Source of the DNA: a bacterium
GTDB taxonomy: Bacteria; Patescibacteriota; Minisyncoccia; Phycocordibacterales; UBA1006
DNA length: 64,000 nt
Assembly (NCBI GenBank): GCA_037144045.1
Contig: JBAWXN010000001.1
Span: forward strand, 203,752-267,751
Direction: 5' to 3'
In this document: positions 37,340-56,610 of the stretch, one piece after another
Numbering within the stretch: position 1 is the first letter of the stretch
Layout: each line of letters starts with the position of its first letter
The notes under the pieces: model-generated
Databases searched by the model: none
What the model saw: the letters and a program-made list of their open reading frames with translations, nothing else
What the model was told of the DNA's origin: nothing
Position numbers and translations under genes: made by a program

Positions 37340-40300
37340 TTACTTACTGATAAGCGCCCACGTTTTAGGACCTACTACCCCATCAGTTTTCAATTTATTT
37401 TGTTTTTGGAATCGTACTACAGCAAGTTTGGTTTTTACCCCAAACAGAGTTGATTCTTTTCCTGGCGAACCAGCACCTGTTTTAGCAATAATAAACCCTT
37501 TCTTGTTTAATGCCTGTTGTAATAATTTTACATCAGCACCCTTCAAACCTTGCTTAAGGGTTCGTTGTACTGTTGTAGTTGGTTGAGTATTTTTTACAGG
37601 GTCATTCACGGGTTGTGAAGACCATGCTTGCCCAACACCTCGATACGAACCTGATGATGAGCCACCGCCTGTAGATGTATCAATCACAGTAAACGGCCCA
37701 ACCATTACTGTATTTGAATCATTATTATTTGCGTCACGACATCCGAAACTAAATGAATACGTACCACCAACCTTGAGCCCTGATACATATGCCGTCTGTT
37801 CAGTATTACTATCAGTTATATCGCTAATATGTAGTTCTGCACTATCACTTACCGACGACTGAATTGGATATGCAAATGGTGTACACACTTCTGAAACAGT
37901 GAACTTGTATGTCGCATTAGCAATCGTTGTCTGCGCTGCAATTGATTTTACCTCGGTAATAATAGGAGCCGTCACGTCAGTTATTTCAAATGTTGTACGC
38001 AAGACAGGATAACTATCTGTCACCGTGCTCCAAATATCTGTGAAATTCCAACTACCTTCACCAGAAGCAAATACTGGCTTCGTTGCGTTGTTGAAGAAAT
38101 AAGCCGTGTCTGGATCTGCGATCGTATTTACCGCAGTACAATCTGAAGCACTTTGATCGTCAACACATCCAAGCGAATTCTTTTCTTCGTCATAATATAC
38201 CTCTCCAAAAACGAGTGTTGCACCCATGTTATTACTTCCCACAACTGAACCCTTGGCATGATCTGCAACCATGGTATTAGCTACAAAAGAATTGTAGATG
38301 TACAGCGACCCTTCATCATTGCGACCAACAAGTCCTCCTGCGTCTCCACCATTTGCGTATGCCGCAACACTTCCTGCTGCATATACCTCAGCGATAAACA
38401 CCGTACCACTGTTACCAGCACCTGACACACCAATGATTCCTCCGACACCACCAGTTGAACCAAGGGTTCCGTTAAAATATGAGTTAGTGATATTCAACGT
38501 ATGATTTCCAATATACGTTGATCCAATTAAACCTCCAACATATCCACCGTTTGCGCCAACGCTTCCTGTCGCATAGTTTTCTGACATTGTATTAATAAAC
38601 TCACCGCTACCATCGCGATAGTTACCAATATACCCGACGAGGCCTCCTGAATAACTTCCTGAACCTACTGATGCAAGTGACCGGTTTGCGGTAATGGTAA
38701 TATATGCGGTTGAATCGTCCCCATAAGTACTGATGTTCTGATACCCAATAAGCCCACCTGCATAGTAACCCCCTGAAGCAATTACACCCTCAACACTATT
38801 GCCATTGACTGTAAAATGGAAACTCTCATCATCATCGTCCATACTATGATACATATAACCAATAAGTCCTCCAGCTGCTGAATCTGTTGCTTCAACTTCA
38901 GCACTTACCCTATTGTTTGCAATAGTAATATTGTTTACATCGTTATTGTAGTAGGTGTATGAATCAATATACCCAATAAGTCCTCCAACATTTTCTGTTC
39001 CGTAAATATTACCACTAGTAACAGTATTACCTGAAACAGTTAAGTTTATAGTTGTGTCATCATCCTGGTCTCCGTCTAACTCAACCTCGCCAATAATTCC
39101 TCCAACATCAGAACCGCCATGAGCGCTGTCACCAGCGACTGTTCCTGTAAATGAGTTATTGGTTAATGAAGTTAAAACACTATATCCTTCCTCGTCTGGG
39201 TATGAATAGAGGTAGCCGACAATACCTCCAACCTTGCTATTTCCAGAAACAACACCACTTGACGAACTATTTGAAATACTTGAACTATGAATCGTTGCAC
39301 CATCAGAGTCCATATAACCAACCAATCCTCCAACATCATTACCTCCCCATCCATAGTTAGGATTGTATAGCCCGTTTACCGCAAGATCACTACGTACATT
39401 TGAAATTGTTGTGTGATATGCATATCCAACAAGTGCCCCTACTTCATAGAATCCTGTAACAGAACCGGTATGCAATGTAACGTTTTTAATAGTGGCTCGA
39501 TCGGTCATCTTGAAAAGACCAACATCACCTTCTTCTGGCAGGTTAATAGTTAAATTACTAATAGTATATCCACGTCCATCAAACACTCCTCGGAAAGTAT
39601 TGTTCCATCCTCCGTTTCCAAGCGCTCGGAAGTTTGGAATTCCCGAACAGTCAATATTTTGAGTTAAATTAAATGTATGTGTATAGGTGTCTGCTTCGGT
39701 ATCCATTGCTTGTAGTTGTGCACAACTACTGATCTCATGTACGGTAGAATTACCAACTGTAAATTGAACTGGGTTAGAGTACTCTCCGTAACCAAGCCAA
39801 TTTTCTGCAGAGATTCTGACATCGTATGTCTGGTCATAATCAAGCTTATTATCGTTATCATCGTATGACAAACTTGTCGTTGTAGCCTCAAGAGCCAGAG
39901 GATTATCCCAATTTGCTGTTGAAAGTTTTACTTGAATGCGATAGCTACTAATTGGAAGTCCGCCATCTGAGAGTGGCACTTCCCACGTAAAGTCAGGATT
40001 TAGGCCATTTACTTGTGCAGTAACATTTTGAGGTTCTGCTGGAGTTGAGATTGCATCTATTGGAATCAGTGTTGGATAATCACCGTCTTCCTGATGCCAA
40101 ACATTTGTAAAATTCCACTGCGTCATCGGAGCTGAAGTTGGTAACAGGAAATAGAATCCTGCGCTCGATGCTCCAGTACATCCATCACCCACTTCGGCAC
40201 CCGAAGCAATACATGAATCGCTTCCATTCGCGGTTGAATCGTAATAATTATTAGTAATCGTTACAGTACTTTGCCTTCGCCCCATAAATGCTCCGTGATT

Positions 40301-42424
40301 ACTTCCACCTGAAACAGTAGTTGCAGCAAAATTGTTGGCAAAAACTACATCGGATCCTCCTTCAGCATATCCTACAAATCCACCAACATCGCCACCCTGG
40401 CCCGTGACATCACCCACTGCATAGTTACGAAGTAAATAAGTACAACAATTTCCTGTTTCTCCAACAAAACCACCGACAGCATAGCTACCCCCATTTACCG
40501 TAGCTCGCGCATAACTATCAGAAATAGTTGTATTTACTGCGTACCCAGTGAATCCTCCAGAAGAAGAAACTCCTCCTGTTACTGTTCCTACGAAACTACT
40601 TTTTGAAACTCCATTCGACGATTGGATAAGTCCAGCAAATCCTCCGACTCGTCCAGCACTTGCGTTTATTGTTCCTGATACGTGAACACCAACAACCGTT
40701 CCATAGATAGTTCCGGCAAGTCCTCCAACATGATCATCACCGCCGGTGACCGTCATATTAGTAAGATTAAAACCATACACAAGAGCACTACCATCAATCT
40801 GAGTAAAAAGTCCTCCCTTACCTGTTGGACCAAGATTGATAGTAATCCCTGAGATAGTATGCCCTCCTCCAACAAATATTCCATCAATACCTTCAATCGG
40901 TATAAATCCAAAATACTGTCCTGGATTTTGAGGATCTTCGTTCCATGTTGCAGTTGCCGAACAATCAATATCATTCCCAAGCGTTACATGTACCCCTTGC
41001 CCAACATTTCCTTGAAGCGACTGAAGCTCTTCACAGGTAGTAACCAAGTAAGGAGTGTTCTCTGACCCATCACCTGCACCCAAGAAACTGTGATCTACAG
41101 TAAATGACGGAATGTTAATTGTATTTGAAAGATTTCCTCCGGCATCACGAACACGAACGGTACAATCTGAATAGGTACCAGTATCGAATCCAAAACTAAT
41201 AGTATTTGAACCAACCGTTGCTGGTACTTCTTCACCACTACATGCACCACCAGTGACGATAGTTCCCGCCTCATCTGTGGTAAATATATAATTTTGAGTA
41301 TATGCACGGGTTGGTGTTGTGATTGCCGTTATTTCTGAAATAACAGGAGCCGTAACATCTGGATCATCATTTACCACACCACCATCAGCGGTGATTGCGC
41401 GCAACGACGGATACTCATCAGTATTTGTTTCCCAGATTGTAGTAAAATCCCATGACGTAAGTGGTGCATTTGCTGCATCGTCTTTAAAATAGTGGATATT
41501 TGTGTTTCCGGCATTTACCCCTTCACACTGACCTATAACAGGTATAATCACCGCTCCATTGTTGTTGTATCCACACATAGTTCGTGTCGATCGGGAAATA
41601 TCAAAAAAGTTATTAGTAAGTCCTGCCGATGGTGTACTTGTTCCGTCTTGGTCATTTCCCCACAGACCTCCAAAGAAGAACGTATTTTGACCAGACAAAA
41701 CTGCTCCCGCATTAAAACTATTAGTGATAATACTTCCTGTTAAGCGCCAACCTGTCAGACCTCCCAGGTGATAAATAGCATCCGTATTTCTTCCGACCTG
41801 CCCGCGATTATATGAATTTATAATACTTGCATAACTCGTCATAAAGCCGGTAATACCTCCAATTTGAGATCCACTAGCAGAGGAAACCTCTCCTGTGTTG
41901 TATGAATTCGTAATAGTAGCATCAGCAAGAAATCCTACAAGACCACCAACATACGAACGCCCCCGAACACTTGCCTCGTTTACGACACGCTCAATTACAG
42001 TAGCTCCGTCAGCAGAAGCCACAACACCTGCAACATAATCACCGGTTGCAGAAACAGATCCAGTAACTCGTACGTCATGAATATGTGCACCGGTAACCTT
42101 ACCAAAAACTCCAACATACTGTGCACCAACATTGGAAATATTTACATCAATCGTATACCCTTGACCATCAAAATCACCTGTGAACGGATCGTTTACAGCG
42201 CCCATAGATAGGAAACTTGTTCCTGAACAATCAATATTATTTGCCAGTTTATATGAAGCCCCTGTATTGAAAGAAATTTCAGTAAGCTGAACACAGTCAG
42301 TAATCATATAAGGATCCCCAATAGTTCCGGCACCTGAACCAGTAAACGCGAACGCATGGCTTGCAGTAACCAAGCTCATTATGAGCAGTGCAATAATTGA
42401 TGCAGTTTTTTTAAAGTAATTCAT
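37340..42424 (-). CDS. Giant (1694 aa) secreted surface protein with many GLUG-motif Gly-rich repeats, an FN3 domain and a C-terminal peptidoglycan-binding domain
   Basis: Signal peptide MNYFKKTASIIALLIMSLVTASHAFA. Tens of GLUG-like repeats (VGGLVGY..., GGLIGY..., VGGFVGY...NSYA.G.V). FN3-like PQNVTAQVNGLNPDFTWEVPLSDGGLPISSYRIQV...YDVRISAENWLGYGEYS. C-terminal LKQGLKGADVKLLQQALNKKGFIIAKTGAGSPGKESTLFGVKTKLAVVRFQKQNKLKTDGVVGPKTWALI (PG_binding_1). Confidence 0.75.
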   Translation of the reverse strand: MNYFKKTASIIALLIMSLVTASHAFAFTGSGAGTIGDPYMITDCVQLTEISFNTGASYKLANNIDCSGTSFLSMGAVNDPFTGDFDGQGYTIDVNISNVGAQYVGVFGKVTGAHIHDVRVTGSVSATGDYVAGVVASADGATVIERVVNEASVRGRSYVGGLVGFLADATITNSYNTGEVSSASGSQIGGITGFMTSYASIINSYNRGQVGRNTDAIYHLGGLTGWRLTGSIITNSFNAGAVLSGQNTFFFGGLWGNDQDGTSTPSAGLTNNFFDISRSTRTMCGYNNNGAVIIPVIGQCEGVNAGNTNIHYFKDDAANAPLTSWDFTTIWETNTDEYPSLRAITADGGVVNDDPDVTAPVISEITAITTPTRAYTQNYIFTTDEAGTIVTGGACSGEEVPATVGSNTISFGFDTGTYSDCTVRVRDAGGNLSNTINIPSFTVDHSFLGAGDGSENTPYLVTTCEELQSLQGNVGQGVHVTLGNDIDCSATATWNEDPQNPGQYFGFIPIEGIDGIFVGGGHTISGITINLGPTGKGGLFTQIDGSALVYGFNLTNMTVTGGDDHVGGLAGTIYGTVVGVHVSGTINASAGRVGGFAGLIQSSNGVSKSSFVGTVTGGVSSSGGFTGYAVNTTISDSYARATVNGGSYAVGGFVGETGNCCTYLLRNYAVGDVTGQGGDVGGFVGYAEGGSDVVFANNFAATTVSGGSNHGAFMGRRQSTVTITNNYYDSTANGSDSCIASGAEVGDGCTGASSAGFYFLLPTSAPMTQWNFTNVWHQEDGDYPTLIPIDAISTPAEPQNVTAQVNGLNPDFTWEVPLSDGGLPISSYRIQVKLSTANWDNPLALEATTTSLSYDDNDNKLDYDQTYDVRISAENWLGYGEYSNPVQFTVGNSTVHEISSCAQLQAMDTEADTYTHTFNLTQNIDCSGIPNFRALGNGGWNNTFRGVFDGRGYTISNLTINLPEEGDVGLFKMTDRATIKNVTLHTGSVTGFYEVGALVGYAYHTTISNVRSDLAVNGLYNPNYGWGGNDVGGLVGYMDSDGATIHSSSISNSSSSGVVSGNSKVGGIVGYLYSYPDEEGYSVLTSLTNNSFTGTVAGDSAHGGSDVGGIIGEVELDGDQDDDTTINLTVSGNTVTSGNIYGTENVGGLIGYIDSYTYYNNDVNNITIANNRVSAEVEATDSAAGGLIGYMYHSMDDDDESFHFTVNGNSVEGVIASGGYYAGGLIGYQNISTYGDDSTAYITITANRSLASVGSGSYSGGLVGYIGNYRDGSGEFINTMSENYATGSVGANGGYVGGLIGSTYIGNHTLNITNSYFNGTLGSTGGVGGIIGVSGAGNSGTVFIAEVYAAGSVAAYANGGDAGGLVGRNDEGSLYIYNSFVANTMVADHAKGSVVGSNNMGATLVFGEVYYDEEKNSLGCVDDQSASDCTAVNTIADPDTAYFFNNATKPVFASGEGSWNFTDIWSTVTDSYPVLRTTFEITDVTAPIITEVKSIAAQTTIANATYKFTVSEVCTPFAYPIQSSVSDSAELHISDITDSNTEQTAYVSGLKVGGTYSFSFGCRDANNNDSNTVMVGPFTVIDTSTGGGSSSGSYRGVGQAWSSQPVNDPVKNTQPTTTVQRTLKQGLKGADVKLLQQALNKKGFIIAKTGAGSPGKESTLFGVKTKLAVVRFQKQNKLKTDGVVGPKTWALISK

Positions 42425-42876: not shown

Positions 42877-42946
42877 TTAAATAATAATACTTCTATTGTA
42901 TCAATGAATATTTTTAAATACAAGATAAAAACACCCGAAGGTGCTG

Positions 42947-43069: not shown

Positions 43070-43109
43070 ATAGACCTAGTATAGACTAAATTGACAAATA
43101 AGGCAATGA

Positions 43110-44255
43110 TTACCGTTCAATGTATTTCATAGTTCCCCATCCAATGAATCCAAGTATTCCTGCAATAAGGAACGGCGCACCTGGATGTGACGCATAGGTA
43201 ACCGTTGCAATGAGTGGTCCTACAATCATTGATAGTGACATGATCGATGCCGAAATTCCTAAATATTCACCACGCTTGTGTTCGTTATGTCCCGCAATAA
43301 TACTTCCGAAAACGGTACGCAAGTTTCCTTGACCAAAAGTAGTAAGAATAAGTCCAATAAAAAATGATACCATCAGTGGTACTGATTGAAACACCATTCC
43401 AACCCCAAACATTACTAACATAATTAATGCAAGCGTTCGCTGTTGAAAATGCACTAGCCAAAACTTTTTAAGCAGTACGAGTTGGTTAATCACAATGAGT
43501 AATCCCACCCCTGCAAATAGTAATCCTGTCGTTTGTGCATTCATACCAAAGACATCCTGCACATATAACGAAAAGGTTCCCTGTTGTACTGATAATGCCG
43601 TTCCAAATAAAAACCAAACAAAGAATATCCATCGCATCTCGTGATTTTTGAATCCATCAATAATAGGCGTAAATGGATTGTACGATAGTTTCTTGTCTTG
43701 AATGCGTACATGATGTGTTTCCGGAAGGAAGAAATATGCAAGGACTGCATTAACGGCAGCAAGGATTCCTACGAAATAAAACGGCGCATGAGTACCCAAA
43801 AGCGCAATAAATCCACCTAGCGCTGGACCAATAATAAATCCAATTCCAAACAAAGCGCCGAATAATCCCATATTTACAGCGCGTTCTTTTGAATCTTTAG
43901 CAATATCTGCAAGCGCACTTTGTGCAGTCGTAATGTTCCCTGCGGCGAGCCCGTCGATAATGCGACCAATAAAAAGAAATGCGACACTCCATGCCTGAGC
44001 AAACACAAACCACCCTATTGCACTAGAAATAATACTTATAATAAGAACGGGTCTGCGACCAATACGATCTGAAAGCGCCCCTAGATAAGGCGCAGAAAAA
44101 AATGAAAATAGTGCATATACTGCAAACAAGAGCGTCACCACTGCCGGTGACACGCCAAATGATTGTACATACGTAGGCAAAATAGGAATAATGATTCCAA
44201 GACCTACAATATCAATAAATACCGTAAATAATACTAATGCTTTAACATTTTTCAT
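43110..44255 (-). CDS. MFS transporter
   Basis: VLFTVFIDIVGLGIIIPILPTYVQSFG, motif A-like LGALSDRIGRRPVLII. About 12 TM segments. Confidence 0.8.
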   Translation of the reverse strand: MKNVKALVLFTVFIDIVGLGIIIPILPTYVQSFGVSPAVVTLLFAVYALFSFFSAPYLGALSDRIGRRPVLIISIISSAIGWFVFAQAWSVAFLFIGRIIDGLAAGNITTAQSALADIAKDSKERAVNMGLFGALFGIGFIIGPALGGFIALLGTHAPFYFVGILAAVNAVLAYFFLPETHHVRIQDKKLSYNPFTPIIDGFKNHEMRWIFFVWFLFGTALSVQQGTFSLYVQDVFGMNAQTTGLLFAGVGLLIVINQLVLLKKFWLVHFQQRTLALIMLVMFGVGMVFQSVPLMVSFFIGLILTTFGQGNLRTVFGSIIAGHNEHKRGEYLGISASIMSLSMIVGPLIATVTYASHPGAPFLIAGILGFIGWGTMKYIER

Positions 44256-44275
44256 AGGTCGTTATAGTATCACAA

Positions 44276-44983
44276 TTAGTGAGTAATAGCTTCAGGTGTG
44301 TTCTGAACTAATATTGCTTGCAAGTACGGAATAATACGATCCGCCATTTTTACATATCCTGCATCATCAGGATGCAGGGGGTCAAACTTATTAGTAATCG
44401 TCCAAAAAACTCCTTGCATGAGTTGAGGTACGTAGACAATTCCATACTTATCAGCAAGTGCACGTAGCTGCTTATTTCGGTTCGCATACAACACATTGTC
44501 AGTCACTTCACCAAAGATAGTAACGATACCCCGCTCTGAAAGTTGTTTGAATAACGATTCCGTATTCGCCAAAAATTCAGATTCCGGAACGAGATGGATA
44601 GCATCATTGCCGCCAATAACTAAAATAACAACCTTAGGATGATAGGTGAATACATCAGCATCAATGCGTTTGAGTAAATCTGCCGTTTCATCGCCACGGT
44701 GACCCTGGTTTAAAATAGTAATTCCGAGACGTGATTCGATAATGCTGACGAATCCGTTCAACTGTGCAGCACCCAGGCCTTCAACAAGGCTATCACCAAA
44801 TGCGATCACATCGTATTGATCCTTATCAGGTGTTACTATCCGGGACACATACCGTTTATTATTCACCGCATCATAGGCCCAGAGTACCATCCATAATACT
44901 ATTGCAAGTAATATAATGCGCCCAATATAATAGAATATTTTTTTAAATCCTTGTGACTCCTTCATAATCATTAGTATACGCAA
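44276..44983 (-). CDS. SGNH/GDSL-family hydrolase, membrane-anchored
   Basis: VIAFGDSLVEGLGA (block I, catalytic Ser), VVILVIGGNDA (block III), DPLHPDDAGY (block V, DxxH). N-terminal TM helix. Confidence 0.7.
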   Translation of the reverse strand: MRILMIMKESQGFKKIFYYIGRIILLAIVLWMVLWAYDAVNNKRYVSRIVTPDKDQYDVIAFGDSLVEGLGAAQLNGFVSIIESRLGITILNQGHRGDETADLLKRIDADVFTYHPKVVILVIGGNDAIHLVPESEFLANTESLFKQLSERGIVTIFGEVTDNVLYANRNKQLRALADKYGIVYVPQLMQGVFWTITNKFDPLHPDDAGYVKMADRIIPYLQAILVQNTPEAITH

Positions 44984-45013
44984 AAATACCCCCTTGCGGA
45001 AGTAGTATGCTCG

Positions 45014-45547
45014 TTATTTTGTAAATACGATTTGTCCTCCGTTATCCTTGATTGAAATAATAAGACTTCCGGTTGTATCAATTTTCACCTGAGTTCCATC
45101 CATAAGGTATTTAGTGAAGTCTTGTTCCTGTGAACCTTCGCAATACATTTGAGTACTCATGAATGGGCCAAATGAGATAATTCCATCAGAACCGAATACG
45201 TATTCCCCACCAAATCCGTTACAATCCGTAGTTCCTTGTACCCGCCCATCAGCTCCTAATGTTACCGAAAAAGCATCCGATCTTTTAGGATTAATCACGG
45301 TTCCATCAGCAAGTACTGTTGTTTTCCAAATCCATTTTACGCGAGTAACCTCTGAAGCACGCGGTGGCGGCGTTGAACCTGGAGGTAATTTAGCACTGGG
45401 TACTAGTACTGATGAGGTTACCGAACCAGAAGAAACGTTTCCAGAGTCAATCGGTGTTGCACCATTATAGAGAGCCATTAATGTAATGAGCCCAACGAGC
45501 AATGCCAGACCAATAACGATACGGATGGTTTGTTGATGTTTATTCAT
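45014..45547 (-). CDS. META/HslJ-like (DUF306) domain lipoprotein or secreted protein
   Basis: TDCNGFGGEYVFGSDGIISFGPFMSTQMYCEG is the META-domain pattern. N-terminal TM/signal segment. Confidence 0.6.
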   Translation of the reverse strand: MNKHQQTIRIVIGLALLVGLITLMALYNGATPIDSGNVSSGSVTSSVLVPSAKLPPGSTPPPRASEVTRVKWIWKTTVLADGTVINPKRSDAFSVTLGADGRVQGTTDCNGFGGEYVFGSDGIISFGPFMSTQMYCEGSQEQDFTKYLMDGTQVKIDTTGSLIISIKDNGGQIVFTK

Positions 45548-45556
45548 AGGTAATTA

Positions 45557-45808
45557 TTATAGCATAGTCGTAGCTATTAATTGTTGTTTTTCATTACGCG
45601 TCATACGTTTTAACACTGCTTCACGGGATCGTACCGTTGCATAATCAGTACATTCCTCTGAATATACCAACTGCACGGGGCGACGAATTTTCGTGTAATG
45701 TGCTCCGGATTTTAAATGATTGTGTGCATGAAGCCTTTTTTCAAGGTCTAATGTAGAACCTACATAGAATGTTCCATCATTACATTTTAGGATATACGCA
45801 AAAAACAT
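45557..45808 (-). CDS. GIY-YIG nuclease-superfamily small protein (UPF0213-like)
   Basis: FFAYILKCNDGTFYVGSTLDLEKRLHAHN...RREAVLKRM. Confidence 0.7.
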   Translation of the reverse strand: MFFAYILKCNDGTFYVGSTLDLEKRLHAHNHLKSGAHYTKIRRPVQLVYSEECTDYATVRSREAVLKRMTRNEKQQLIATTML

Positions 45809-45844
45809 ACTCCTACTGTAGCATGTTTTTGTAAGTCCAATCTG

Positions 45845-46105
45845 TTACATTTTTTTGCGCAAGAATTCAGTACGGAGGATAATTCCTTTCATGTCCTCAT
45901 AACGACACTCGATTTCTTCTTCATCGCCGGTCAATCGAATATTTTTAATTACGGTTCCCTTTTTAATCGTGAGTTTAGTACCTCCTACTTTAAGGTCCTT
46001 AATGACCTGCACGGTGTCACCACTGGCAAGTTCTGCTCCTTGTGAATCAACCACTTTATATGCGTCTTCTTGTTCGTCATGTTCCATATACGGCGAGTGT
46101 AGCAT
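45845..46105 (-). CDS. PhnA C-terminal-domain-like small protein (YjdC-like)
   Basis: VVDSQGAELASGDTVQVIKDLKVGGTKLTIKKGTVIKNIRLTGDEEEIECR matches the PhnA C-terminal domain pattern. Confidence 0.6.
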   Translation of the reverse strand: MLHSPYMEHDEQEDAYKVVDSQGAELASGDTVQVIKDLKVGGTKLTIKKGTVIKNIRLTGDEEEIECRYEDMKGIILRTEFLRKKM

Positions 46106-46129
46106 ACTATCTTATAAAATAAAAAAACC

Positions 46130-46366
46130 TTATTCAGGCTTTTTACTCTGCATCATAGGCAAGCTATCGATATACAATCGTTCTACTTTGGTGCGTGCCC
46201 AAGGAGTTCTTCGTAGAAATACGAGACTTGATTTAATACTTGGGTCTACTTGAAAACAATTAATGCGCACATACTGCCCTAATGGTTCCCAACCATAATG
46301 AGCGACTAATTCGTTCAAAATCATTTCTAATGTTTTCCCTTGGAGCGGATTGTTACCATTATTCAT
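46130..46366 (-). CDS. Small conserved protein (VF530/DUF2132-like)
   Basis: [61 protein letters not shown]. Family assignment from memory only. Confidence 0.45.
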
Positions 46367-46398
46367 GACTCATATGTACCATAATTTGTAGTAAAAGA

Positions 46399-47316
46399 CT
46401 ACTTAATTTCTGCGCAGTCTTTTTGATTCATTTGAAATCCTGGAGTCAATTTTTCAGGATGCGCATAGACATAGCTCCCGTCTTCACTATCCTTCATTTC
46501 ACCAAAAAATGCGACTGCAGATCCTTCTCCAAACTGAATTTTCAATTGTTCTGTTGCCTGCATTCCTTCTGCCATTACATTCCACCATACATCAGCGGTA
46601 CGTGAAGAAATCTTTGGATTCATAGGTCCCACCACTCCTTCAAAAGTTCCTGTTTTAGAATCCTTTTCTGCGGGTAAATTTTTATACTCACCAGAAATTG
46701 TATTACCTAAGATAGTCATGTTCAATATGGCTCGATCAAAAAATCCAGCAGGCGTTTTCTTTTCATACGAATAACACATGGCAATAGGTTTTACACACTC
46801 TGTAGCAACATATGAACGTACCTTGTATTCTTTGGTAGTATCTGGAACGAGTCCGTCTTTGTAGTTATCAATTAATGAATACTGTAGTTTATCAATTCCT
46901 GTTTTTGTAAATTTGTAAATTTCTTGTTCGATGTTTTTTGAACCCTCAACAGTATAGGCGTAGTCTGCCGTAATCGTATCACCTGCAATGGTACCCGTGA
47001 GATTTCCAGAGTATCCATTCGTCATATCAGGACCTGACTGACTCCCTTTTTTATTACCCGTTACTTGGGTTCCGTTTATGGTAAAGGTAAGATATTCGTC
47101 GACGGCATACGGCGCATCTTGAGTAGCTACCTGATGATACGCATAGCAACGGGTTCCTGTGGTTTGATCAAGTATCGTCTCAACCGGTGATACGGTGAGT
47201 GCCTGTGGCTGTGTTACTACTAATATCGCAACAACCCCTCCAACTAACACGATTAATGTTCCGATAATGATAATTATTTTTTTCATGAACTCATTATACC
47301 ACAATAAAAGACCCAC
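46399..47316 (-). CDS. Hypothetical secreted or membrane-anchored protein
   Basis: N-terminal TM helix KKIIIIIGTLIVLVGGVVAILVV. No recognised domain. Confidence 0.45.
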   Translation of the reverse strand: MGLLLWYNEFMKKIIIIIGTLIVLVGGVVAILVVTQPQALTVSPVETILDQTTGTRCYAYHQVATQDAPYAVDEYLTFTINGTQVTGNKKGSQSGPDMTNGYSGNLTGTIAGDTITADYAYTVEGSKNIEQEIYKFTKTGIDKLQYSLIDNYKDGLVPDTTKEYKVRSYVATECVKPIAMCYSYEKKTPAGFFDRAILNMTILGNTISGEYKNLPAEKDSKTGTFEGVVGPMNPKISSRTADVWWNVMAEGMQATEQLKIQFGEGSAVAFFGEMKDSEDGSYVYAHPEKLTPGFQMNQKDCAEIK

Positions 47317-47339
47317 CTCCGTGAGTCTTTTATATTCGA

Positions 47340-50300
47340 TTACTGAGCTAAACCATTAGCTCCGCATGACTTATTAATGAGTCCTCTCGTTACAGGTCCT
47401 ACCATTCCGTCTTGGTCAGTTCCTAAATACTTCTGCATGCGCTTGATCGCACCATCAGTGATTTTTCCAAGGATTCCATCAACAGGTCCAGAATTAAATC
47501 CAAGTCGGTTCATATGTCCTTGAAGTATTTTTACTTCTTTAACCATCGCTTTGGTGTACGGATGATACTTACCATTGCGTGCACCTGCTTTTAGATTTTG
47601 AGTAAGGATTTGATCGGCAGGACAGGTATCTAGGGAAGGCGTATTTGGTATTGCCGTTGCAGATGCTGTGTTTTGTGCAACCGGTGTCCAAGGTCTTCCT
47701 TGACCCGACGAAATTGTTGGTTGAGTAGTAGCTACCCCTGGCACATATTCAGGTTCGGTTGGCGCAAATCTAAATACTGGATAATTTGCGGTTGCCTGCC
47801 AAATCGTATCAAAATCCCAATCAGTCATCGGGGCACTAGTATTATTTGCCTTGAAATAATTAACACCTGATACCTTGGTTGGTTGAGGATTTGCATAGCT
47901 ACCATCTACCCCAATACTTGCAGCACTATACCAATAGTTACCCGTTGCGGCATAATCTAACATATTACTTGAGCCGGCATATCCACCAATAACAGCACCG
48001 CCAGTTGTCGGTTCACTTACCGTAAACGAATCATAAGTTCCTTTAGGATCAGAACCCCAATCGGCACCCGTTATTCCTCCAGTATAGTTTCCTGTACTGT
48101 GAACAGTACCTGATGAATATACCCGTTCAATGGTTCCATAGTTAATCCCCGTAATACCACCCACATAACTATCTCCCTCGATGGTTGTTGCCGCGTAACT
48201 ATCGTGAATCCAACCATTGCCCTGGTTTGCACCAGCAATTCCACCAGCAATTCCACCACCCGCTATGGTACCTGTAAAATACGACCGTCTTATTTCTTTA
48301 TTATTGTTACCAACCAATCCTCCCACATGACTATTTCCTGTCACGTCTGCGGTTGAATAGGATTCAATGATCGTACTTCCTCCACTGCGAAGCGCATCAG
48401 GAAATGGTCCTGGTACTACTCGAGTATTCCAAGTGTTGATGTAAGAAGTATTTTCTGGAGTCATTGGATACGGTGCCATACCTGGACCATATTTAGTCAT
48501 GCCACGATACGGTAAATAATCTGCTGACTGACTATATTCGCCCATACCTTGATAGGTTGCGTGTTTATAGAGCGCATCGTTGTACAGTACAAAACTTCGT
48601 TCCATACCCTCTACAGGTGCAATGTATGGGAATTCAACAGACAACTGGTCTCCATAACGCATTACCACAAATTGATCATCCGAATCATTTAGGAGCGGCG
48701 TCACGTCACCATATTTGGTAAATTTTCCGTATTGGTTTTTAAATATTCCTCTTGGTAGCGGACTTGCTTTTGAATAATCGTGATCATAGAAATGACTGCG
48801 ATCAATCTCGCTGAATCCATAGTATCCCAAGTCAACCGATTCTGGTTGGTAGGTATTCGCCGTGAAAGGAACTTGGGCTGAAGTATCTACGGCAAAATAG
48901 TTTGCATTGAATGTATCAAAGGCAACTTTTACACGATAATCATTCGTCAAGAATTTCCCCGTCAAATCAACGGTTCGCAATCGCGCTGTTCCATCTGAAC
49001 CTAATTGATTTTTGTTATAAATTTCAACCCAGTTTCCGTTTGCATCTTTTACTTGGATTGATCGCGCTGAGTTTCCTGGATATTGTGCACTGGCTGCGTA
49101 ATCACGCGCACCACGGATCACTAATTGAATTGAATTAGCTTCTGACAAATCACCAAAATCTAGCACGAAACTTTTCTTGAGATTTGCCGGGTTATAATTA
49201 CCGCCTTGATTTGTAAAGCTCCACTGATCGTCATATGCCTTGAGTGCATCGGTACAATTGGTACCCTTTTCGTCAACACATGATACCAATTGATGGGTAG
49301 GTGTGTCACTTACCGTACGCAATCCATCAACACCCGCAGTACTTGTAAGCGGTTCTACTACTGAATATCCTGGTGCATGATCAAATGTCATCAATGCTAA
49401 TTTATCATAATACACGGTTTCGTTATATTCCTCGGTAATCTTCATGGAATATTTACCGTCTTTCGGTGCAAGATTATTCGCATCAATTGTCGCCAAGTCT
49501 ATTCCACTTAAGTCCTTAGGGAGTAATCCTCCTACGTCATTCGTATACACATATTTTGATCCGTTCCAGGTATAGACCAATGGACTTGAATTGGGAAAAT
49601 TATTTGCATCTACATGGGATCCAACCAATCCTCCAACATTTTCTTGTCCCTGTACGGTACCACTACTGCTTACATTAGTGAGTGTACCTGAAAGCCCTCC
49701 AGCGAATGCACCTATATTTTTTCCGGCAGCAGTTATATTCACATTTTCAAGCTCGAGGTTCTTTACCTCAGCACCTGCGGCAATCGTTCTGAAAAGCCCG
49801 ACATAGTATCCGTCCAACTCACTGTTATTTACTCCACGATTAATATACAGACCGCTGATTTTATGATTTTGCCCATCGAAAACACCCGTAAAACTCTGAT
49901 GATTAAATCCTGAACTAATATTATTCCCATTAACAGCAATTTCACCAAGTGGCCTGAACCCCTTGCCACTGTTCCAATTAATAGTATCCGAACAATCAAT
50001 ATCACTTGCTAATGCATAATACTTATCAAGGGTTGAAACATCATTTCCAACTGCCTGAAGTGCCACACAACTTGAAATCATATACGGATCAAGTTCTGTT
50101 CCTGTTCCAGTAAGAGTGATTTCGTTTGAAGCAGGTCCGTATTTCATAACCTTAGCCTTGTTTTGTAACCCTGTGAATCCAACATAGAGGGTGTCGTTCG
50201 GTGCAACAACAAGTGAGACAAAAGCGCCGGAACGCTCTGAAAAATCTGCGGCGCCTACAGAAATCCATCCATCACCGTTATAAGTCACGACATTTACCTT

Positions 50301-51251
50301 GTTATTGTTATTACTATTCGTATAGGCAAGATATAAATTATTTTCTGAATCAATAGCAAGTGACGTGAAATGTACATCAAATTCGGTAAATCCTGGTGTG
50401 CTGACACTTTCCCAGGCGGTACCATTAAAATGCATTACCGTTGCCTTGTGGCTGTTTCCACCGTCTTCATATGCCAGGTATAATTCTCCGTTTGGTGCAA
50501 ACGCAAGAGAGTTAAAATCCGCCGAACCCGCAGAAAAACCAGGGTCACCAACGTTCTCCCAGATCGTACCGTTGAATCTCATAACAGTTGCCTTGTAATC
50601 TCGGGTAACGTCCTTGATCGCAACATAAGGTACATTCGCGGAACTGATGGCAAGCGTAATCGTTTCGACTTCTCCATCAGAAAAACCTGCCGTTCCTACG
50701 AGTTCCCAGGCCGTACCATTAAATTTCATCACGGTTGCCTTGTTGCTATTTGAAGCGTCTCGGTAGGCAATATAAGGAGTCGCATCGGGAGCAATCTTAA
50801 GAGAAGTATACTCTGCAGCGCCACCAGAAAAACCTGCCGTTCCTACAGCTTCCCACGTGGTACCGTTAAATTTCATCACGGTTGCTTTTTCGCTGTTTGA
50901 AGCATCCGCAAAACCAATATACGGGGTACCGTTTGGAGCAATCGCAAGCGACGTATATGCAGTACCACCACCTGAGAAGCCAGCCGTGCCAACCGCCTCC
51001 CACGAAGTACCGTCGTATTTCATCACGGTTGCCTTGTTCCCCGCATTACCGTCATTGAACCCGATGTATTGAGTACCATCAGGAGCCACCGCCATAGATG
51101 TGAAATAACTGCTGTTTATCGATATACTTTGATCACCCAGCAATCCCCAGGCGTCAACTGCAAATACATGATTCGCACTAAAAATAATTCCGACCACGAG
51201 TAATGGTAATAAAAAAGCAATCCGCATCACACGGCGATTTAATAGGTTCAT
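47340..51251 (-). CDS. Giant (1303 aa) secreted surface protein with seven N-terminal propeller-like repeats (about 49 aa each), a GLUG-like Gly-rich region and a C-terminal peptidoglycan-binding domain
   Basis: Signal peptide MNLLNRRVMRIAFLLPLLVVGIIFSANHVFA. Repeats of W..VGTAGFSGG..Y.SLAIAPNGTPYIGF.D.SN..KATVMKFNGT. NVGGLVGSH and GGLVGNNN stretches. C-terminal ILTQNLKAGARNGKYHPYTKAMVKEVKILQGHMNRLGFNSGPVDGILGKITDGAIKRMQKYLG. Confidence 0.75.
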   Translation of the reverse strand: MNLLNRRVMRIAFLLPLLVVGIIFSANHVFAVDAWGLLGDQSISINSSYFTSMAVAPDGTQYIGFNDGNAGNKATVMKYDGTSWEAVGTAGFSGGGTAYTSLAIAPNGTPYIGFADASNSEKATVMKFNGTTWEAVGTAGFSGGAAEYTSLKIAPDATPYIAYRDASNSNKATVMKFNGTAWELVGTAGFSDGEVETITLAISSANVPYVAIKDVTRDYKATVMRFNGTIWENVGDPGFSAGSADFNSLAFAPNGELYLAYEDGGNSHKATVMHFNGTAWESVSTPGFTEFDVHFTSLAIDSENNLYLAYTNSNNNNKVNVVTYNGDGWISVGAADFSERSGAFVSLVVAPNDTLYVGFTGLQNKAKVMKYGPASNEITLTGTGTELDPYMISSCVALQAVGNDVSTLDKYYALASDIDCSDTINWNSGKGFRPLGEIAVNGNNISSGFNHQSFTGVFDGQNHKISGLYINRGVNNSELDGYYVGLFRTIAAGAEVKNLELENVNITAAGKNIGAFAGGLSGTLTNVSSSGTVQGQENVGGLVGSHVDANNFPNSSPLVYTWNGSKYVYTNDVGGLLPKDLSGIDLATIDANNLAPKDGKYSMKITEEYNETVYYDKLALMTFDHAPGYSVVEPLTSTAGVDGLRTVSDTPTHQLVSCVDEKGTNCTDALKAYDDQWSFTNQGGNYNPANLKKSFVLDFGDLSEANSIQLVIRGARDYAASAQYPGNSARSIQVKDANGNWVEIYNKNQLGSDGTARLRTVDLTGKFLTNDYRVKVAFDTFNANYFAVDTSAQVPFTANTYQPESVDLGYYGFSEIDRSHFYDHDYSKASPLPRGIFKNQYGKFTKYGDVTPLLNDSDDQFVVMRYGDQLSVEFPYIAPVEGMERSFVLYNDALYKHATYQGMGEYSQSADYLPYRGMTKYGPGMAPYPMTPENTSYINTWNTRVVPGPFPDALRSGGSTIIESYSTADVTGNSHVGGLVGNNNKEIRRSYFTGTIAGGGIAGGIAGANQGNGWIHDSYAATTIEGDSYVGGITGINYGTIERVYSSGTVHSTGNYTGGITGADWGSDPKGTYDSFTVSEPTTGGAVIGGYAGSSNMLDYAATGNYWYSAASIGVDGSYANPQPTKVSGVNYFKANNTSAPMTDWDFDTIWQATANYPVFRFAPTEPEYVPGVATTQPTISSGQGRPWTPVAQNTASATAIPNTPSLDTCPADQILTQNLKAGARNGKYHPYTKAMVKEVKILQGHMNRLGFNSGPVDGILGKITDGAIKRMQKYLGTDQDGMVGPVTRGLINKSCGANGLAQ
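50126..51155 (-). repeat. Intragenic tandem repeat of about 147 bp in roughly 7 copies, encoding the propeller-like blades
   Basis: Periodic protein repeat KATVM.FNGT.WE.VG..GFS. The antisense ORFs 50365-50598 and 50857-51072 show the same periodicity. Confidence 0.6.
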
Positions 51252-51303
51252 ATGCAGATAGTATATAAAATATAAAAAGTATTATCAATTACAACTCTCG
51301 TTT

Positions 51304-52212
51304 TTATTTACCTAAAAAAGTTTCCATCGCCTCATCAATGGTTTTGTATGTGAACTCAAACCCTGTTACTTGTAATTTCGCAGGTACGGCACGCGTGCTT
51401 GCAAGTACTGCTTTGGCAAATTCGCCCAGAATAATGCGCAATGCAAATGCTGGAATAATCAAGAACGCCGGACGATGGAGTGCCTTACCAAGTGATTTTG
51501 TAAACACCCGATTCGTCACGGGTTCTGGTGCGGTCGCATTCACAGGACCTGACAATTGCATATTCGTAATCGCCTCGTAGTAAATTGCAATGAGATCATC
51601 AATATGAATCCATGAAAACCATTGATTTCCATTTCCCAATCTTCCTCCTAATCCCCACTTGAATATCGGAAGTAGTTTTGACATCATGCCACCTCCGGGA
51701 CCCAGCACGATTGCCGTACGCACAGAAACCCGACGAATTCCGAGTTCCTCAATTTTTTGTGCAGCAGATTCCCACGCAACACAAACATCTGATAGAAAAT
51801 CCGTTCCCGTTGTTGGCGTAGATGCAGATTCGTCGAGTATCCGATCAGTTTGATCGCCATAATACCCAACTGCTGATGCACACACGAATACAGTCGGTTT
51901 GATTTCAGATGCACGGCACGCGTCCACAATGGACGCCGTGCTTTTCGTACGACTCTCCATGATCTGTTGTTTATATTCTGCCGTCCACCGTTCGTAAATA
52001 CTCACGCCTGCCAAATGCACAATAGCATTGTGATTTGCGATACTTGTCGGTGCAGCATCGGTTACCAAATTCGCAGAAACAAATTGCATACGTTCATGCG
52101 AAAACCGCGGCGCTACGCGATCGTAAATAGTTACCTGATGACCAGCATCTAATAATTTATGTGCAAGGGCCGTTCCGATAAATCCGGAACCGCCAGTAAT
52201 AGCAATGTTCAT
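51304..52212 (-). CDS. NAD-dependent epimerase/dehydratase family protein of the YfcH type (TIGR01777, C-terminal DUF1731)
   Basis: MNIAITGGSGFIGTALAHKLLDAGHQVTIYDR. C-terminal region consistent with DUF1731. Confidence 0.75.
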   Translation of the reverse strand: MNIAITGGSGFIGTALAHKLLDAGHQVTIYDRVAPRFSHERMQFVSANLVTDAAPTSIANHNAIVHLAGVSIYERWTAEYKQQIMESRTKSTASIVDACRASEIKPTVFVCASAVGYYGDQTDRILDESASTPTTGTDFLSDVCVAWESAAQKIEELGIRRVSVRTAIVLGPGGGMMSKLLPIFKWGLGGRLGNGNQWFSWIHIDDLIAIYYEAITNMQLSGPVNATAPEPVTNRVFTKSLGKALHRPAFLIIPAFALRIILGEFAKAVLASTRAVPAKLQVTGFEFTYKTIDEAMETFLGK

Positions 52213-52264
52213 GAAAATAGTATATCAGAAAATCGTTCCTTGTTTTGATATTTCAACAATGTGA

Positions 52265-52681
52265 TTAAAATGCTTTTCTATACTTTGCTGTCTTCTGTGC
52301 AATCTTGGCCGGCTGTTTTACCCACTGAGCCCCCTTTTTAGTTCCAAGGTTTTTTGCACGATCCGTTGCAATTTTTTCACCGACGGTTAGATGTTCGCGA
52401 GCTTGTTTCGGTAAATAGCGACTATGATTTGGTTCGGCAACATAGCCCCAGTCCTCCTTGGTCCATTTCACTAAACTATTCCGATCCGTTTTCTTGCCCA
52501 CATACCCACCACCGCGCTCTTTGTATAATTTCACAGCATACTGCATCGCGCGCGCAGAAAATTTTCCCATCTTCTCGACAGCTTCCTGTTTGCAATAGCC
52601 CCACAAGGGTTCGTTATCGCGCTCTGCTGTTTTACCAGAAGTTTTCTTTGCAGTAACTTTTTTTCCTGTGGGTTTGTTCAT
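52265..52681 (-). CDS. Hypothetical basic protein
   Basis: 138 aa. WGYCKQEAVEKMGKFSARAMQYAVKLYKERGGGYVGKKTDRNSLVKWTKEDWGY. Lys-rich termini. GC higher than the genome background. Confidence 0.45.
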   Translation of the reverse strand: MNKPTGKKVTAKKTSGKTAERDNEPLWGYCKQEAVEKMGKFSARAMQYAVKLYKERGGGYVGKKTDRNSLVKWTKEDWGYVAEPNHSRYLPKQAREHLTVGEKIATDRAKNLGTKKGAQWVKQPAKIAQKTAKYRKAF

Positions 52682-52723
52682 GCAAATAGTATATCAAAAA
52701 AACCGCACAACGTGCGGCTTTTC

Positions 52724-53815
52724 TTACTGATACTGAATATAAATCGGAATAGGTTGTAACTTCAAAATTTCTGCCGGTGTTATCAAACGCGTACTTGGTT
52801 TGAGCATGTCGTTTCCATAAAATATTTTAAGTCCTGCAAACTGTACTGGTTCAGGATAGATCACATGTTTGTACGTGGTTTTTTTATGATCAGGGCTTCC
52901 CCATCCATCCATATGAATAACAATTTGAACTTCAGGAAGGGGCTTTATCTGATCATAATTCATAACTCCATCCTGGGTAAATCGATGGATTACTAATATT
53001 TTCGGAGGCAAATTATTTTCGCGTACCAATTTTGCCAAATATTCCATTGCCCAATTAATCTCACTGGCATCCAGACTTCCTACTACGGTTCCAGGAACCT
53101 TGCCATTTTTCATGGCAAATTCTGGATCAATACCCAGATGCACCGTAGGTTGTTTCAAGTATTCCTCGAGTCTTGGAATTTCTTCTTGTACCGTACTGTG
53201 CCCTATTTGAATATCTAAAAAGGTAATTGCTTTCGCCTTGTCTGCTAAATCAAGCGCTTTTTGTATTTGCTCCTTAGGCATGCGAAAAGTGTATTTCTTA
53301 TCAGCTCCAGGGTCTTTTTGTGCAGTACTTGCAATGTAATGAATTGCAGGCATGGCGGGAATACTCGGATCAGCAGCGTTCCAATCCTTCACATTCTGCG
53401 CTAATTTTTCAAGCACCACATCTGCAGGATACTGCCCCAAGATTCCCATTTTTTTAGAATAGAAATTTCCATAGAATGCGATAATGCGATGGTATGGTAA
53501 TAACGCACCTTCGTACGGATACGGAAGTCCTTCTACTGGCCATCCTGTTTTTTCAATTACAGGCTCTGTGGTTGTAGTTGAGGTACTTGATGCTGGCACA
53601 GGAACCGGTTCTGGATTATTAGCCAAAGCTTCCATTTTTGCATCATATGCTGCCTTATCAACGAATTGTCGTGACTTGGGCTTTTCATCCACAACTGAAT
53701 CGGTAATTGTTAATGATGAGTCATTTTTGTGAATCACTGATCTATTGATAAAAAAAGCAGCAGCACCACCTATAACGACGATTCCCATTATTGCGGCAGT
53801 AATTGTTTTGTTCAT
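52724..53815 (-). CDS. Membrane-anchored or secreted hypothetical protein
   Basis: Start taken at the ATG giving MNKTITAAIMGIVVIGGAAAFFI. The large C-terminal domain has no recognised motif. Confidence 0.45.
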   Translation of the reverse strand: MNKTITAAIMGIVVIGGAAAFFINRSVIHKNDSSLTITDSVVDEKPKSRQFVDKAAYDAKMEALANNPEPVPVPASSTSTTTTEPVIEKTGWPVEGLPYPYEGALLPYHRIIAFYGNFYSKKMGILGQYPADVVLEKLAQNVKDWNAADPSIPAMPAIHYIASTAQKDPGADKKYTFRMPKEQIQKALDLADKAKAITFLDIQIGHSTVQEEIPRLEEYLKQPTVHLGIDPEFAMKNGKVPGTVVGSLDASEINWAMEYLAKLVRENNLPPKILVIHRFTQDGVMNYDQIKPLPEVQIVIHMDGWGSPDHKKTTYKHVIYPEPVQFAGLKIFYGNDMLKPSTRLITPAEILKLQPIPIYIQYQ

Positions 53816-54759: not shown

Positions 54760-56610
54760 TTAAATATGTAGTCTTTTATTAATTTCATCTACCAATTGAT
54801 CTAGCAGCTGATAATCATTAGATAAGGTAGTTCGTGTTGGCTTGAAATCATTTGAGATGTTCATTTTTAATTTTTCTAAAAACTCAATTGAAAATTTATT
54901 ATTTTGCTGTAAATATATTTTGATTTGATCAATCAATGGACTAGTTTCAATTAAGGAAAAGTTGAGTACGTCAGCTCCAAATTCTTTTTTATATAAAGTT
55001 TTAAACTTACTTTCAATAAAAGGTTTTCGAAGGAAGTCTTCAATTGTAGCCCCTGCTGAAATTTGTCCTATTAAATCCCGAATAGTGACGACATTATTTG
55101 TATTAAAAACTCCTCCAATACTGAGTATTTTGTCTCTATATCCAATTCCTTCCTTGTCATCGTCAGTAAGAACCATAACATCAATCTCGTCACTGTTTAA
55201 TTTTGTAGCAACTTGAACAATATTACTACCTGTTCCATTAGTAATTCCGAAATCAAAACTTTTTAAAGTAAAGATTTTTTGTAATATTATTTTATCGCTT
55301 GCCCCTTCAACTAAAATTCTGTATGGTGAAAACAGGTCACGATATACACTTAAACCAAACGCTATATCAAGTACCTCGTCACCAGTAATATCATCTGTCG
55401 GCCCGACCAGTATTTTTTCTGTTATAGCTGATTTATTTTTTTTAATTATAATATTTCGTTCTTTATTTTTTCTGTCAACGAGAAAAGGAGAATGTGTAGA
55501 TACAAACAAATAGTTAGTTTTACCAATTTCTAATAACTCATCTCGCAAGTCTCTAATTCCTGAAGGATGTAGATGTGTTTCTGGTTCGTCTATCAAGATA
55601 AGATTGTTCTTTTTTCCCATTTTTTTGGCTTCAATAGATAAGGATAGGATAAGAGAAATAAACTGCTTAAAACCTTCGCTGCGTGATGTCATTTTATGGT
55701 AATTGTGCTCATTGTTTTTACCGTCATCTTTTATAGACACTACAATTTTTTTAGTGTCTGAAATCTCTATGTCAAAATTAATATCATGATCCCAGACATT
55801 TTTTACATAATTTGTTGCATTGTCAGATAGTCTTCCCATCAGCTTTCTTCGCAAATTATCATTTGAAGTTTCATCGATTTTCTCCTTTATTTGCTTTGAT
55901 CCAATAAAGCCCGATAATGCAAATATGTTCCTCAGTGGAATATTAGAAGAAGGCTTTTCTCTGAATTCTGTTAAATCGACAGACCCTAGTAAGTATTTAT
56001 CGGAAGGTTTCCAAAAAGAAACTTGGGGCTCGAACTCTTTAATTGAATTAACAATTGCCTCATTAAAATTCTCTATAACAAAAGCCTCATCTACTGGACT
56101 ATATGTTTCATCAGCGTCCGGTTTCTTCTTAATATCAAAACTATCCACGGTCTTACTCTCCGTTCCCACTGTTATGGTTTTTTGTATTTTTTTAGCAACT
56201 AATCCCTTTTTAACATTATTAATATCATATTCGTAGGATTCAGAGAAAAACTTTGTATCTTTTTGAAGATATACATTTTTGCAAATATTCTTGATATTAA
56301 AATCAAGAATATTGTTATCGTCACCAATTTCCGCTCGCACAAAATCCAGCCACGACTCCTCTTTATCAAAATCAAGATAAAACCATAAATCAATAGGGTT
56401 GCCCTCCTCGTCTTTTTGGTTATGAAGAGAGTGGTAATCAAATTCTTCAGTAGGTGTATTAAGGTATGATATTGCATCAAGAATATTACTTTTTCCAGAC
56501 TCATTTACACCAAGAAATACTGTTGTGTAGCTTGGTCCATATTTTTTAATGTCGAGTTCAATTTTCTGAATTGATTTGTAATCCTCAATTATTATTTTTA
56601 TTAATTTCAT
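54760..56610 (-). CDS. OLD-family nuclease: N-terminal ABC-type ATPase (AAA_15/21-like) plus C-terminal TOPRIM domain
   Basis: Walker A GVNESGKSNILDAI. Signature-like TSRSEGFKQFISL. Walker B/H-loop LILIDEPETHLHP. TOPRIM Glu motif ILVEGASDKIIL and DxD motif VMVLTDDDKEG. The gene is extremely AT-rich, roughly 28-30% GC. Confidence 0.8.
   Translation of the reverse strand: MKLIKIIIEDYKSIQKIELDIKKYGPSYTTVFLGVNESGKSNILDAISYLNTPTEEFDYHSLHNQKDEEGNPIDLWFYLDFDKEESWLDFVRAEIGDDNNILDFNIKNICKNVYLQKDTKFFSESYEYDINNVKKGLVAKKIQKTITVGTESKTVDSFDIKKKPDADETYSPVDEAFVIENFNEAIVNSIKEFEPQVSFWKPSDKYLLGSVDLTEFREKPSSNIPLRNIFALSGFIGSKQIKEKIDETSNDNLRRKLMGRLSDNATNYVKNVWDHDINFDIEISDTKKIVVSIKDDGKNNEHNYHKMTSRSEGFKQFISLILSLSIEAKKMGKKNNLILIDEPETHLHPSGIRDLRDELLEIGKTNYLFVSTHSPFLVDRKNKERNIIIKKNKSAITEKILVGPTDDITGDEVLDIAFGLSVYRDLFSPYRILVEGASDKIILQKIFTLKSFDFGITNGTGSNIVQVATKLNSDEIDVMVLTDDDKEGIGYRDKILSIGGVFNTNNVVTIRDLIGQISAGATIEDFLRKPFIESKFKTLYKKEFGADVLNFSLIETSPLIDQIKIYLQQNNKFSIEFLEKLKMNISNDFKPTRTTLSNDYQLLDQLVDEINKRLHI

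Follow-up and report, generated by a model that had tools for sequence, protein, structure and literature searches.

The gene at positions 47340..51251 (minus strand) of the 64,000-nucleotide bacterial DNA stretch analyzed here (contig JBAWXN010000001.1, positions 203,752 to 267,751; hereafter the window) encodes a secreted, modular, adhesin-like surface protein of a familiar kind, built of known types of fold. The open reading frame (ORF) starts with ATG and codes for 1303 amino acids, which are exactly the coordinates and the length given in the initial annotation, an earlier model-made reading of the DNA letters; no ORF of at least 80 amino acids overlaps it on the opposite strand. The protein is already public (MEI8223751.1, encoded on a contig of 273,932 bp), under the NCBI name "MAG: peptidoglycan-binding protein". 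It is large, beta-rich and rich in Gly, Thr, Ser and Asn, and it consists, from the N-terminus, of a signal peptide, a seven-bladed beta-propeller, a GLUG domain split by an inserted module, a low-complexity linker and a C-terminal PG_binding_1 domain (Table 1). We consider it probable that this protein is exported by the Sec pathway, is tethered non-covalently to the cell wall of a bacterium of the Patescibacteria/candidate phyla radiation (CPR), and acts as an adhesin-like protein that binds a glycan or a host.

The only hydrophobic stretch of the protein is the signal peptide: the Kyte–Doolittle index exceeds 1.6 only at residues 6–35 (the cleavage site was judged by eye from the sequence). 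We found no lipobox and no transmembrane segment that could serve as another anchor, nor, within the 200 C-terminal residues, any LPXTG-like motif, nor a hydrophobic segment at the C-terminus. The six cysteines can be grouped locally into three pairs (395/420, 658/666 and 1210/1296), which suggests that the protein is exported and disulfide-bonded, in an extracytoplasmic location; two of these pairs are conserved in homologs. The surface-type character that the initial annotation had assigned to the protein is supported by these features of a secreted protein.

According to structure prediction, residues 32–384 fold as a seven-bladed, velcro-closed beta-propeller. The AlphaFold2 model, calculated on this region aligned with 19 homologous segments, has a predicted local distance difference test score (pLDDT) of 94.5 and a predicted template modelling score (pTM) of 0.91. 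Its 28 strands are grouped as 1 + 6 x 4 + 3, that is, seven four-stranded blades, the last of which receives its fourth strand from the N-terminus. The initial annotation had deduced such a propeller from the repeats and had suggested a structure prediction, with which it proves to agree. The best matches of the model in the PDB, obtained with Foldseek, are the seven-bladed PLL/PHL lectins of Photorhabdus (PDB 8q82, 6fhx and 5c9o; E 1e-13 to 1e-11, template modelling (TM) scores of 0.63–0.70), followed by GH145 enzymes (BT3686, BACINT_00347), the EPTP domain of LGI1 and several sialidases. The lectins and the propeller have the seven-bladed fold in common, whereas homology is not apparent from their sequences: no PDB chain, those of the PLL/PHL lectins included, matches the protein or the propeller profile with significance in a sequence search.

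In the sequence, the propeller appears as a tandem repeat with a period of 147 nt or 49 amino acids (Tandem Repeats Finder (TRF) score of 390; repeat families spaced by 147 nt). Six full units start at residues 73, 122, 171, 220, 269 and 318, with a partial unit of 41 residues on the N-terminal side and a short closing strand, KAKVMKY, at the C-terminal end; the consensus is KATVMkFNGT.WE.VGtaGFS.G.....SLAiap....Y.a..D..N. The initial annotation had described these units as near-identical and, at the DNA level, as long, highly similar direct repeats that are recombinogenic and prone to misassembly. This is not what we observe. The units are 27–73% identical in amino acids and 46–71% in nucleotides, TRF recognizes no more than 2.5 copies (at 76%), and exact repeats within 50100–51251 do not exceed 22 nt. 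It is true that tandem repeats are present and that the source is a short-read metagenome-assembled genome (MAG), so that the copy number might be imagined to have collapsed or expanded in the assembly. On the contrary, a separate assembly from Logan (run SRR12676975) agrees with the window at 100% identity along 9,912 nt that include the whole gene, and the seven encoded blades close into a complete propeller that is modelled with high confidence. Misassembly or recombination of the repeats is therefore rejected, and we regard the chance that the repeat region is an artefact as negligible.

There is no dedicated Pfam or NCBIfam model for the 49-residue repeat, only partial matches to Rax2, DUF6087 and, in relatives, delta-60. 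The Rax2 match (PF12768; 32.5 bits for a cut-off of 28.8) is composed of two partial stretches that cover about 77 of the 254 profile positions, and probably reflects a distant resemblance at the level of the repeat rather than family membership. The repeat itself is very common, mostly in cargo proteins of the type IX secretion system (T9SS) of Bacteroidota. In proteins with a T9SS type A sorting domain from, for example, Rufibacter, Pontibacter and Flavobacterium, it is the same repeat (KATVMKF.G..W..VG..GFS.G.A.Y.SLA....G.PYVAY.D, 35–53% identity), often in at least 14 blades. These proteins end in a Por_Secre_tail, whereas ours ends in PG_binding_1 and matches neither of the T9SS sorting-domain models PF18962 and TIGR04183; a PG_binding_1 tether instead of a T9SS tail suits a bacterium that has no outer membrane. 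A few other proteins that contain the repeat also end in PG_binding_1 (P0065, P0102 and P0119).

The propeller is followed by what the initial annotation called a GLUG-like region. A GLUG domain is indeed there, but its description was incomplete: the domain is split by a large module that had been overlooked and that makes up about a third of the protein. The Pfam Glug model (PF07581) matches the protein only marginally, in three stretches (20.8 bits for a cut-off of 20.5, the best at residues 972–996), and strongly in homologs. A profile obtained by aligning the GLUG region of the protein with canonical GLUG domains matches the PDB entries 3n6z ("putative IgA1 protease"; 9e-20) and 6xja (N-terminal domain of the IgA1 protease from S. 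pneumoniae; 3e-17), while the spliced single GLUG sequence retrieved only low-complexity matches to ribosomal P1. The N-terminal beta-helical domain of the M26 IgA1 proteases (3n6z, 6xja and 7uvk; 9e-20 to 9e-13) and the GLUG domain of our protein have VGGLVG rungs and capping motifs in common. The former enzymes have a catalytic domain with HExxH, and our protein has neither: the Pfam scan finds no M26 catalytic domain, HExxH and HxxEH are both absent from the sequence, and the match to the non-catalytic tail of Peptidase_M26_N is below threshold (19.1 for a cut-off of 27.7). An IgA1-protease-like enzyme is rejected on these grounds.

In canonical GLUG proteins (P0175–P0178), which are not split, the segments that match residues 385–545 and 960–1160 adjoin, and the same is true of all three GLUG domains of the 1694-residue protein encoded at 37340–42424 in the window. 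Residues ~552–958 are therefore an insertion, of about 400 residues, in the turn between two VGGLVG rungs. A comparable design has been described in the RTX adhesin AhLap of Aeromonas hydrophila, whose ligand-binding domains emerge from "split" domains (PMC12077191). In both cases the chain leaves a scaffold domain, forms a binding-type module and goes back to complete the scaffold, but the scaffold is Ig-like or RTX in AhLap, a substrate of the type I secretion system (T1SS), and a GLUG beta-helix in our Sec-exported protein. The resemblance is one of design and not of homology.

The inserted module was modelled, with an alignment of 25 sequences, as an all-beta structure (pLDDT 87.8, pTM 0.88) that contains a subdomain with a CBM32-like jelly-roll fold. 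This subdomain resembles CBM32 or F5/8 type C domains (for example 7d2a, 2jd9 and 2v72), and the rest of the insert has no solved counterpart. No Pfam or NCBIfam model covers the insert, a Foldseek search against the PDB with the insert gives nothing at E<=1e-3 (the query-normalized TM score never exceeds 0.22), and matches of the insert profile to PDB sequences are at chance level (E >=0.78). NCBIfam matches to WecE/aminotransferase models at residues 600–709 are spurious (21 bits for a cut-off of 375). A profile search in 1.84 billion representative proteins nevertheless returns a large family: 4,541 members reach E<=1e-3 and 1,195 reach E<=1e-30, the size of about 4,500 being counted in clusters at 50% identity. 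In 43 diverse members, the neighbouring domains are FG-GAP/UnbV_ASPIC and TPR, right-handed beta-helix/NosD, GLUG, fn3-like, CARDB and multihaem domains, and all of these contexts are extracytoplasmic; in the FG-GAP/UnbV_ASPIC and TPR proteins the insert sits at the C-terminus. Cys658 and Cys666 are nearly invariant in the family, and many Asp, Glu, His, Arg and Lys residues are invariant in homologs of 25–35% identity; the invariant positions include E, D, DH, W, R, K and NTR.

The C-terminal PG_binding_1 domain (PF01471) predicted by the initial annotation is found at residues 1238–1289 (47.3 bits for a cut-off of 23, 2.4e-12); its sequence relatives in the PDB are the endolysin 7rum and SleB (6tci). 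A hidden Markov model scan of all six-frame ORFs shows that exactly three ORFs of the window have this domain at their C-terminus, namely the present one and, as had been claimed, those at 5190–6287 and 37340–42424. In related contigs (L064 and L065), 23 kb encode three to four further PG_binding_1 proteins, whose passengers are LamG, beta-helix, Big_5 or GLUG, and the recurrence of this tail supports the display strategy that the initial annotation had suggested for the three proteins. The best-known examples of PG_binding_1 come from wall hydrolases such as SleB and the endolysins. In these enzymes, which match the tail by sequence, the domain targets a hydrolase, whereas our protein has no detected enzyme domain and PG_binding_1 forms the very C-terminal end of several passenger proteins that are unrelated to one another. 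In our protein the domain may serve as the wall anchor that the initial annotation saw in it. It was reported that Patescibacteria express extracellular proteins with peptidoglycan-binding domains, which were proposed to be used for host attachment (Kuroda et al., mBio 2024, PMC10936435). Those proteins, like ours, are secreted, contain a peptidoglycan-binding domain and come from the same phylum-level group.

On L065 (GCA_964817425.1), positions 6898–18743 contain four proteins that end in PG_binding_1 in 12 kb, around a homolog of our protein (P0003): a beta-helix protein of 1016 residues, a split-GLUG protein of 970, a LamG protein of 682 and a LamG and Big_5 protein of 647. This region looks like a surface-protein island.

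The comparison with a close relative shows that the N-terminal module is exchangeable. The ENA contig L064, whose GatB is 96% identical to that of the window, is collinear with positions 37985–53543 at 72–85% nucleotide identity. The genes for an epimerase, our protein, a small ORF, VF530, YjdM, GIY-YIG, META, a GDSL lipase and an MFS transporter occur in the same order in both, and the shared order continues with two small ORFs and then GLUG/PG_binding_1 proteins. The ortholog encoded by L064 (P0002) is 75% identical to our protein in the GLUG-insert-GLUG part, but its signal peptide is directly joined to the start of the GLUG domain (GTG...YMI..C): it has no propeller, and window positions 49949–51251 have no counterpart in L064. 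The absence of the propeller from a syntenic ortholog indicates that the propeller was swapped in at the N-terminus, and parsimony suggests that it was acquired in the lineage of our protein. Among the 174 insert-bearing proteins retrieved, ours is the only one that also has the propeller. In about half of the split-GLUG family no module precedes the GLUG domain, and the others have different N-terminal modules of 155–584 residues. The G+C content at third codon positions of the propeller-coding segment (50100–51158) is 0.41, compared to 0.27–0.33 in the other domain segments and 0.25–0.38 in neighbouring genes, which is compatible with acquisition from elsewhere but, by itself, a weak hint.

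Two neighbouring loci also differ between the contigs. The gene at 37340–42424 corresponds, in L064 (18441–23165), to two genes of 784 and at least 846 codons, either because a gene was fused or divided or because one of the two assemblies contains a frameshift. At 46399–47316 (minus strand), 23 nt downstream of our gene, lies a 305-residue ORF with a hydrophobic N-terminal segment and no Pfam match; the ORF at the corresponding place in L064 has only 168 residues, the DNA similarity nonetheless spanning positions 47629–46795.

The window is an ordinary piece of chromosome, with genes for Pth, S1, Obg, GatB, PheS/PheT, L25, L9, RF, QueA and others; peptidoglycan metabolism is represented by an SLT_2 transglycosylase. 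The named relatives of its GatB, at 67–68%, are Candidatus Nomurabacteria and Paceibacterota, and those of the GLUG-insert-GLUG part come from Taylorbacteria, Nomurabacteria, Moraniibacteriota, Gracilibacteria and "Saccharibacteria" MAGs, which points to a Patescibacteria/CPR bacterium of the Paceibacteria type as the probable source. The ORFs for PheS and PheT (11277–13166, plus strand) are unusually short (232 and 395 residues) and yet contain the core Pfam domains, which fits a reduced genome of the CPR type. In the literature we found nothing directly relevant on GLUG, on the families partially matched by the 49-residue repeat or on PG_binding_1 in Patescibacteria.

We propose the following arrangement of the protein at the cell surface. 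After export, the signal peptide would be cleaved and the C-terminal PG_binding_1 domain, a three-helix module, would bind the producer's own peptidoglycan, as expected from its family. The Pro/Thr-rich linker of about 70 residues would then cross the wall, and the GLUG beta-helix, which is homologous to the non-catalytic N-terminal domain of the M26 IgA1 proteases, would form a rigid stalk. From the turn between two rungs of this stalk, the 400-residue beta-sandwich module with its CBM32-like jelly roll would project sideways and may bind a ligand. The lectin-like, seven-bladed propeller would stand at the distal N-terminus, where it may bind a glycan or the host. Two different binding modules would in this way be presented to host cells or polymers, and the protein would be one member of a lineage-wide set that uses PG_binding_1 as a common C-terminal tether.

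Several observations weigh against this proposal. The ligand binding and the localization proposed for the protein are deduced from sequence and models, and the taxonomic assignment from similarity. The structural matches of the propeller, lectins included, are at 9–15% identity only. The resemblance to CBM32 is limited to about a quarter of the insert, and the Pfam model F5_F8_type_C_2 gives no significant match to it (E 0.94; 10.6 bits for a cut-off of 27.8). The invariant charged residues of the insert could equally mark a catalytic site. Last, self-tethering by PG_binding_1 is assumed, and this domain is better known from wall hydrolases than from anchors of adhesins.

Three other functions could be envisaged. 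The protein might be a wall-associated carbohydrate-active enzyme in which the propeller (as in the GH145 enzymes and the sialidases) or the insert is catalytic, the CBM32-like part and PG_binding_1 merely targeting it to a polymer. The presence of such enzymes among the Foldseek matches of the propeller is in favor of this idea, as are the invariant Asp, Glu, His, Arg and Lys residues of the insert, the usual attachment of CBM32 modules to glycoside hydrolases and the wall hydrolases that PG_binding_1 typically accompanies. We consider it quite unlikely, however: neither Pfam nor NCBIfam detects a catalytic family anywhere in the protein, there is no HExxH motif, the best matches of the propeller are lectins and not enzymes, all of them at the same low identity, and no enzyme structure matches the insert over the whole domain. 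A purely structural role, as an S-layer-like component or a wall-spanning scaffold of the envelope that has no specific ligand, is very unlikely. The size and composition of this beta-rich protein would suit it, and several paralogous GLUG/PG_binding_1 proteins are encoded nearby. But the Pfam scan detects no SLH or S-layer domain, and the protein evolves fast, the ortholog being 75% identical compared to 96% for GatB; a propeller that is present in one of two orthologs and absent from the other is likewise typical of interaction proteins.

It may also be that the peptidoglycan recognized by the tail is not the producer's but that of another cell, a host or a prey, in which case the protein would be a released effector or a bridging factor of an episymbiont. 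Patescibacteria are episymbionts, the role proposed for their extracellular peptidoglycan-binding proteins is host attachment (PMC10936435), and our protein has no other anchor (LPXTG, lipobox or transmembrane segment). On the contrary, a tail placed at the C-terminus behind a long linker, and binding modules at the far end, are what self-anchored surface proteins usually show, and a tail that is common to many unrelated passenger domains in the lineage is what is expected of a generic anchor; moreover, the hosts in the study cited are archaea, which have no murein. We therefore judge binding of foreign peptidoglycan to be unlikely. None of the four alternatives, counting the assembly artefact dismissed above, is favored by the data, and a self-anchored adhesin-like protein is the reading that we retain.

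Table 1. Coordinates, in the window, of the parts of the protein encoded at 47340..51251 and of related features.
Feature	Residues	Position (strand)	Basis or remark
Promoter-like site TTGATA-17-TATACT (10/12)		51260..51288 (-)	Within the 52-nt gap that precedes the ATG
Signal peptide (MNLLNRRVMRIAFLLPLLVVGIIFSANHVFA/VDA)	1-31	51159..51251 (-)	Kyte–Doolittle; cleavage site by eye
Seven-bladed beta-propeller	32-384	50100..51158 (-)	Repeats, AlphaFold2, Foldseek
GLUG domain, first half, including N-terminal cap with Cys395/Cys420	385-551	49599..50099 (-)	
Inserted all-beta module of ~400 residues, with CBM32-like jelly-roll subdomain and conserved Cys658/Cys666	~552-958	48378..49598 (-)	
GLUG domain, second half, with repeated ..VGGLVG.. 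rungs and C-terminal WDF..IW cap	959-1165	47757..48377 (-)	
Pro/Thr/Ser/Ala-rich low-complexity linker	1166-1235	47547..47756 (-)	Read from the sequence; no domain match
PG_binding_1 domain, between Cys1210 and Cys1296	~1236-1303	47343..47546 (-)	
Surface protein of 1694 aa, the second that ends in PG_binding_1, with fn3 and three GLUG domains, none of them split		37340..42424 (-)	
Third PG_binding_1-terminated secreted protein, 365 aa		5190..6287 (-)	

Regarding expression signals, scans of the region for promoters and terminators give numbers of matches within chance expectation, and no Shine–Dalgarno sequence is visible upstream of the ATG (51252–51303, minus strand). The -10 box (TATACT) of the promoter-like site ends 8 nt before the start codon, so that the transcript would be leaderless or nearly so if this site were real. 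Elsewhere in the window, two ORFs code for probable secreted proteins, one of 383 residues with Lamin-tail-domain and PKD domains (217–1368, plus strand) and one of 301 residues of the CAP/cysteine-rich secretory family (33282–34187, plus strand). The product of 54760–56610 (minus strand), a 616-residue protein with AAA_15/AAA_21 (AbiEii/OLD-like) ATPase domains, is possibly a component of a defence system.

How CPR/Patescibacteria recognize and attach to their hosts is poorly understood, and surface proteins that are large, modular and quick to evolve are the obvious ones to consider. The locus described here does not overturn current views and is no surprise; it is a well-characterized instance, a concrete example with clean domain boundaries in which a generic tether and a rigid GLUG stalk carry two exchangeable binding-type modules. 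It also draws attention to two abundant domain families that have no model in current libraries, the 49-residue propeller repeat and the 400-residue insert. A more speculative idea, which we put forward although we consider it rather unlikely, is that the insert is an undescribed and widespread extracytoplasmic domain that binds ligands or is catalytic, and that, together with the propeller and on a stalk tethered by PG_binding_1, it forms the host-recognition apparatus of a Paceibacteria-type episymbiont. If this were true, the swapping of N-terminal modules between close relatives would set the host range.

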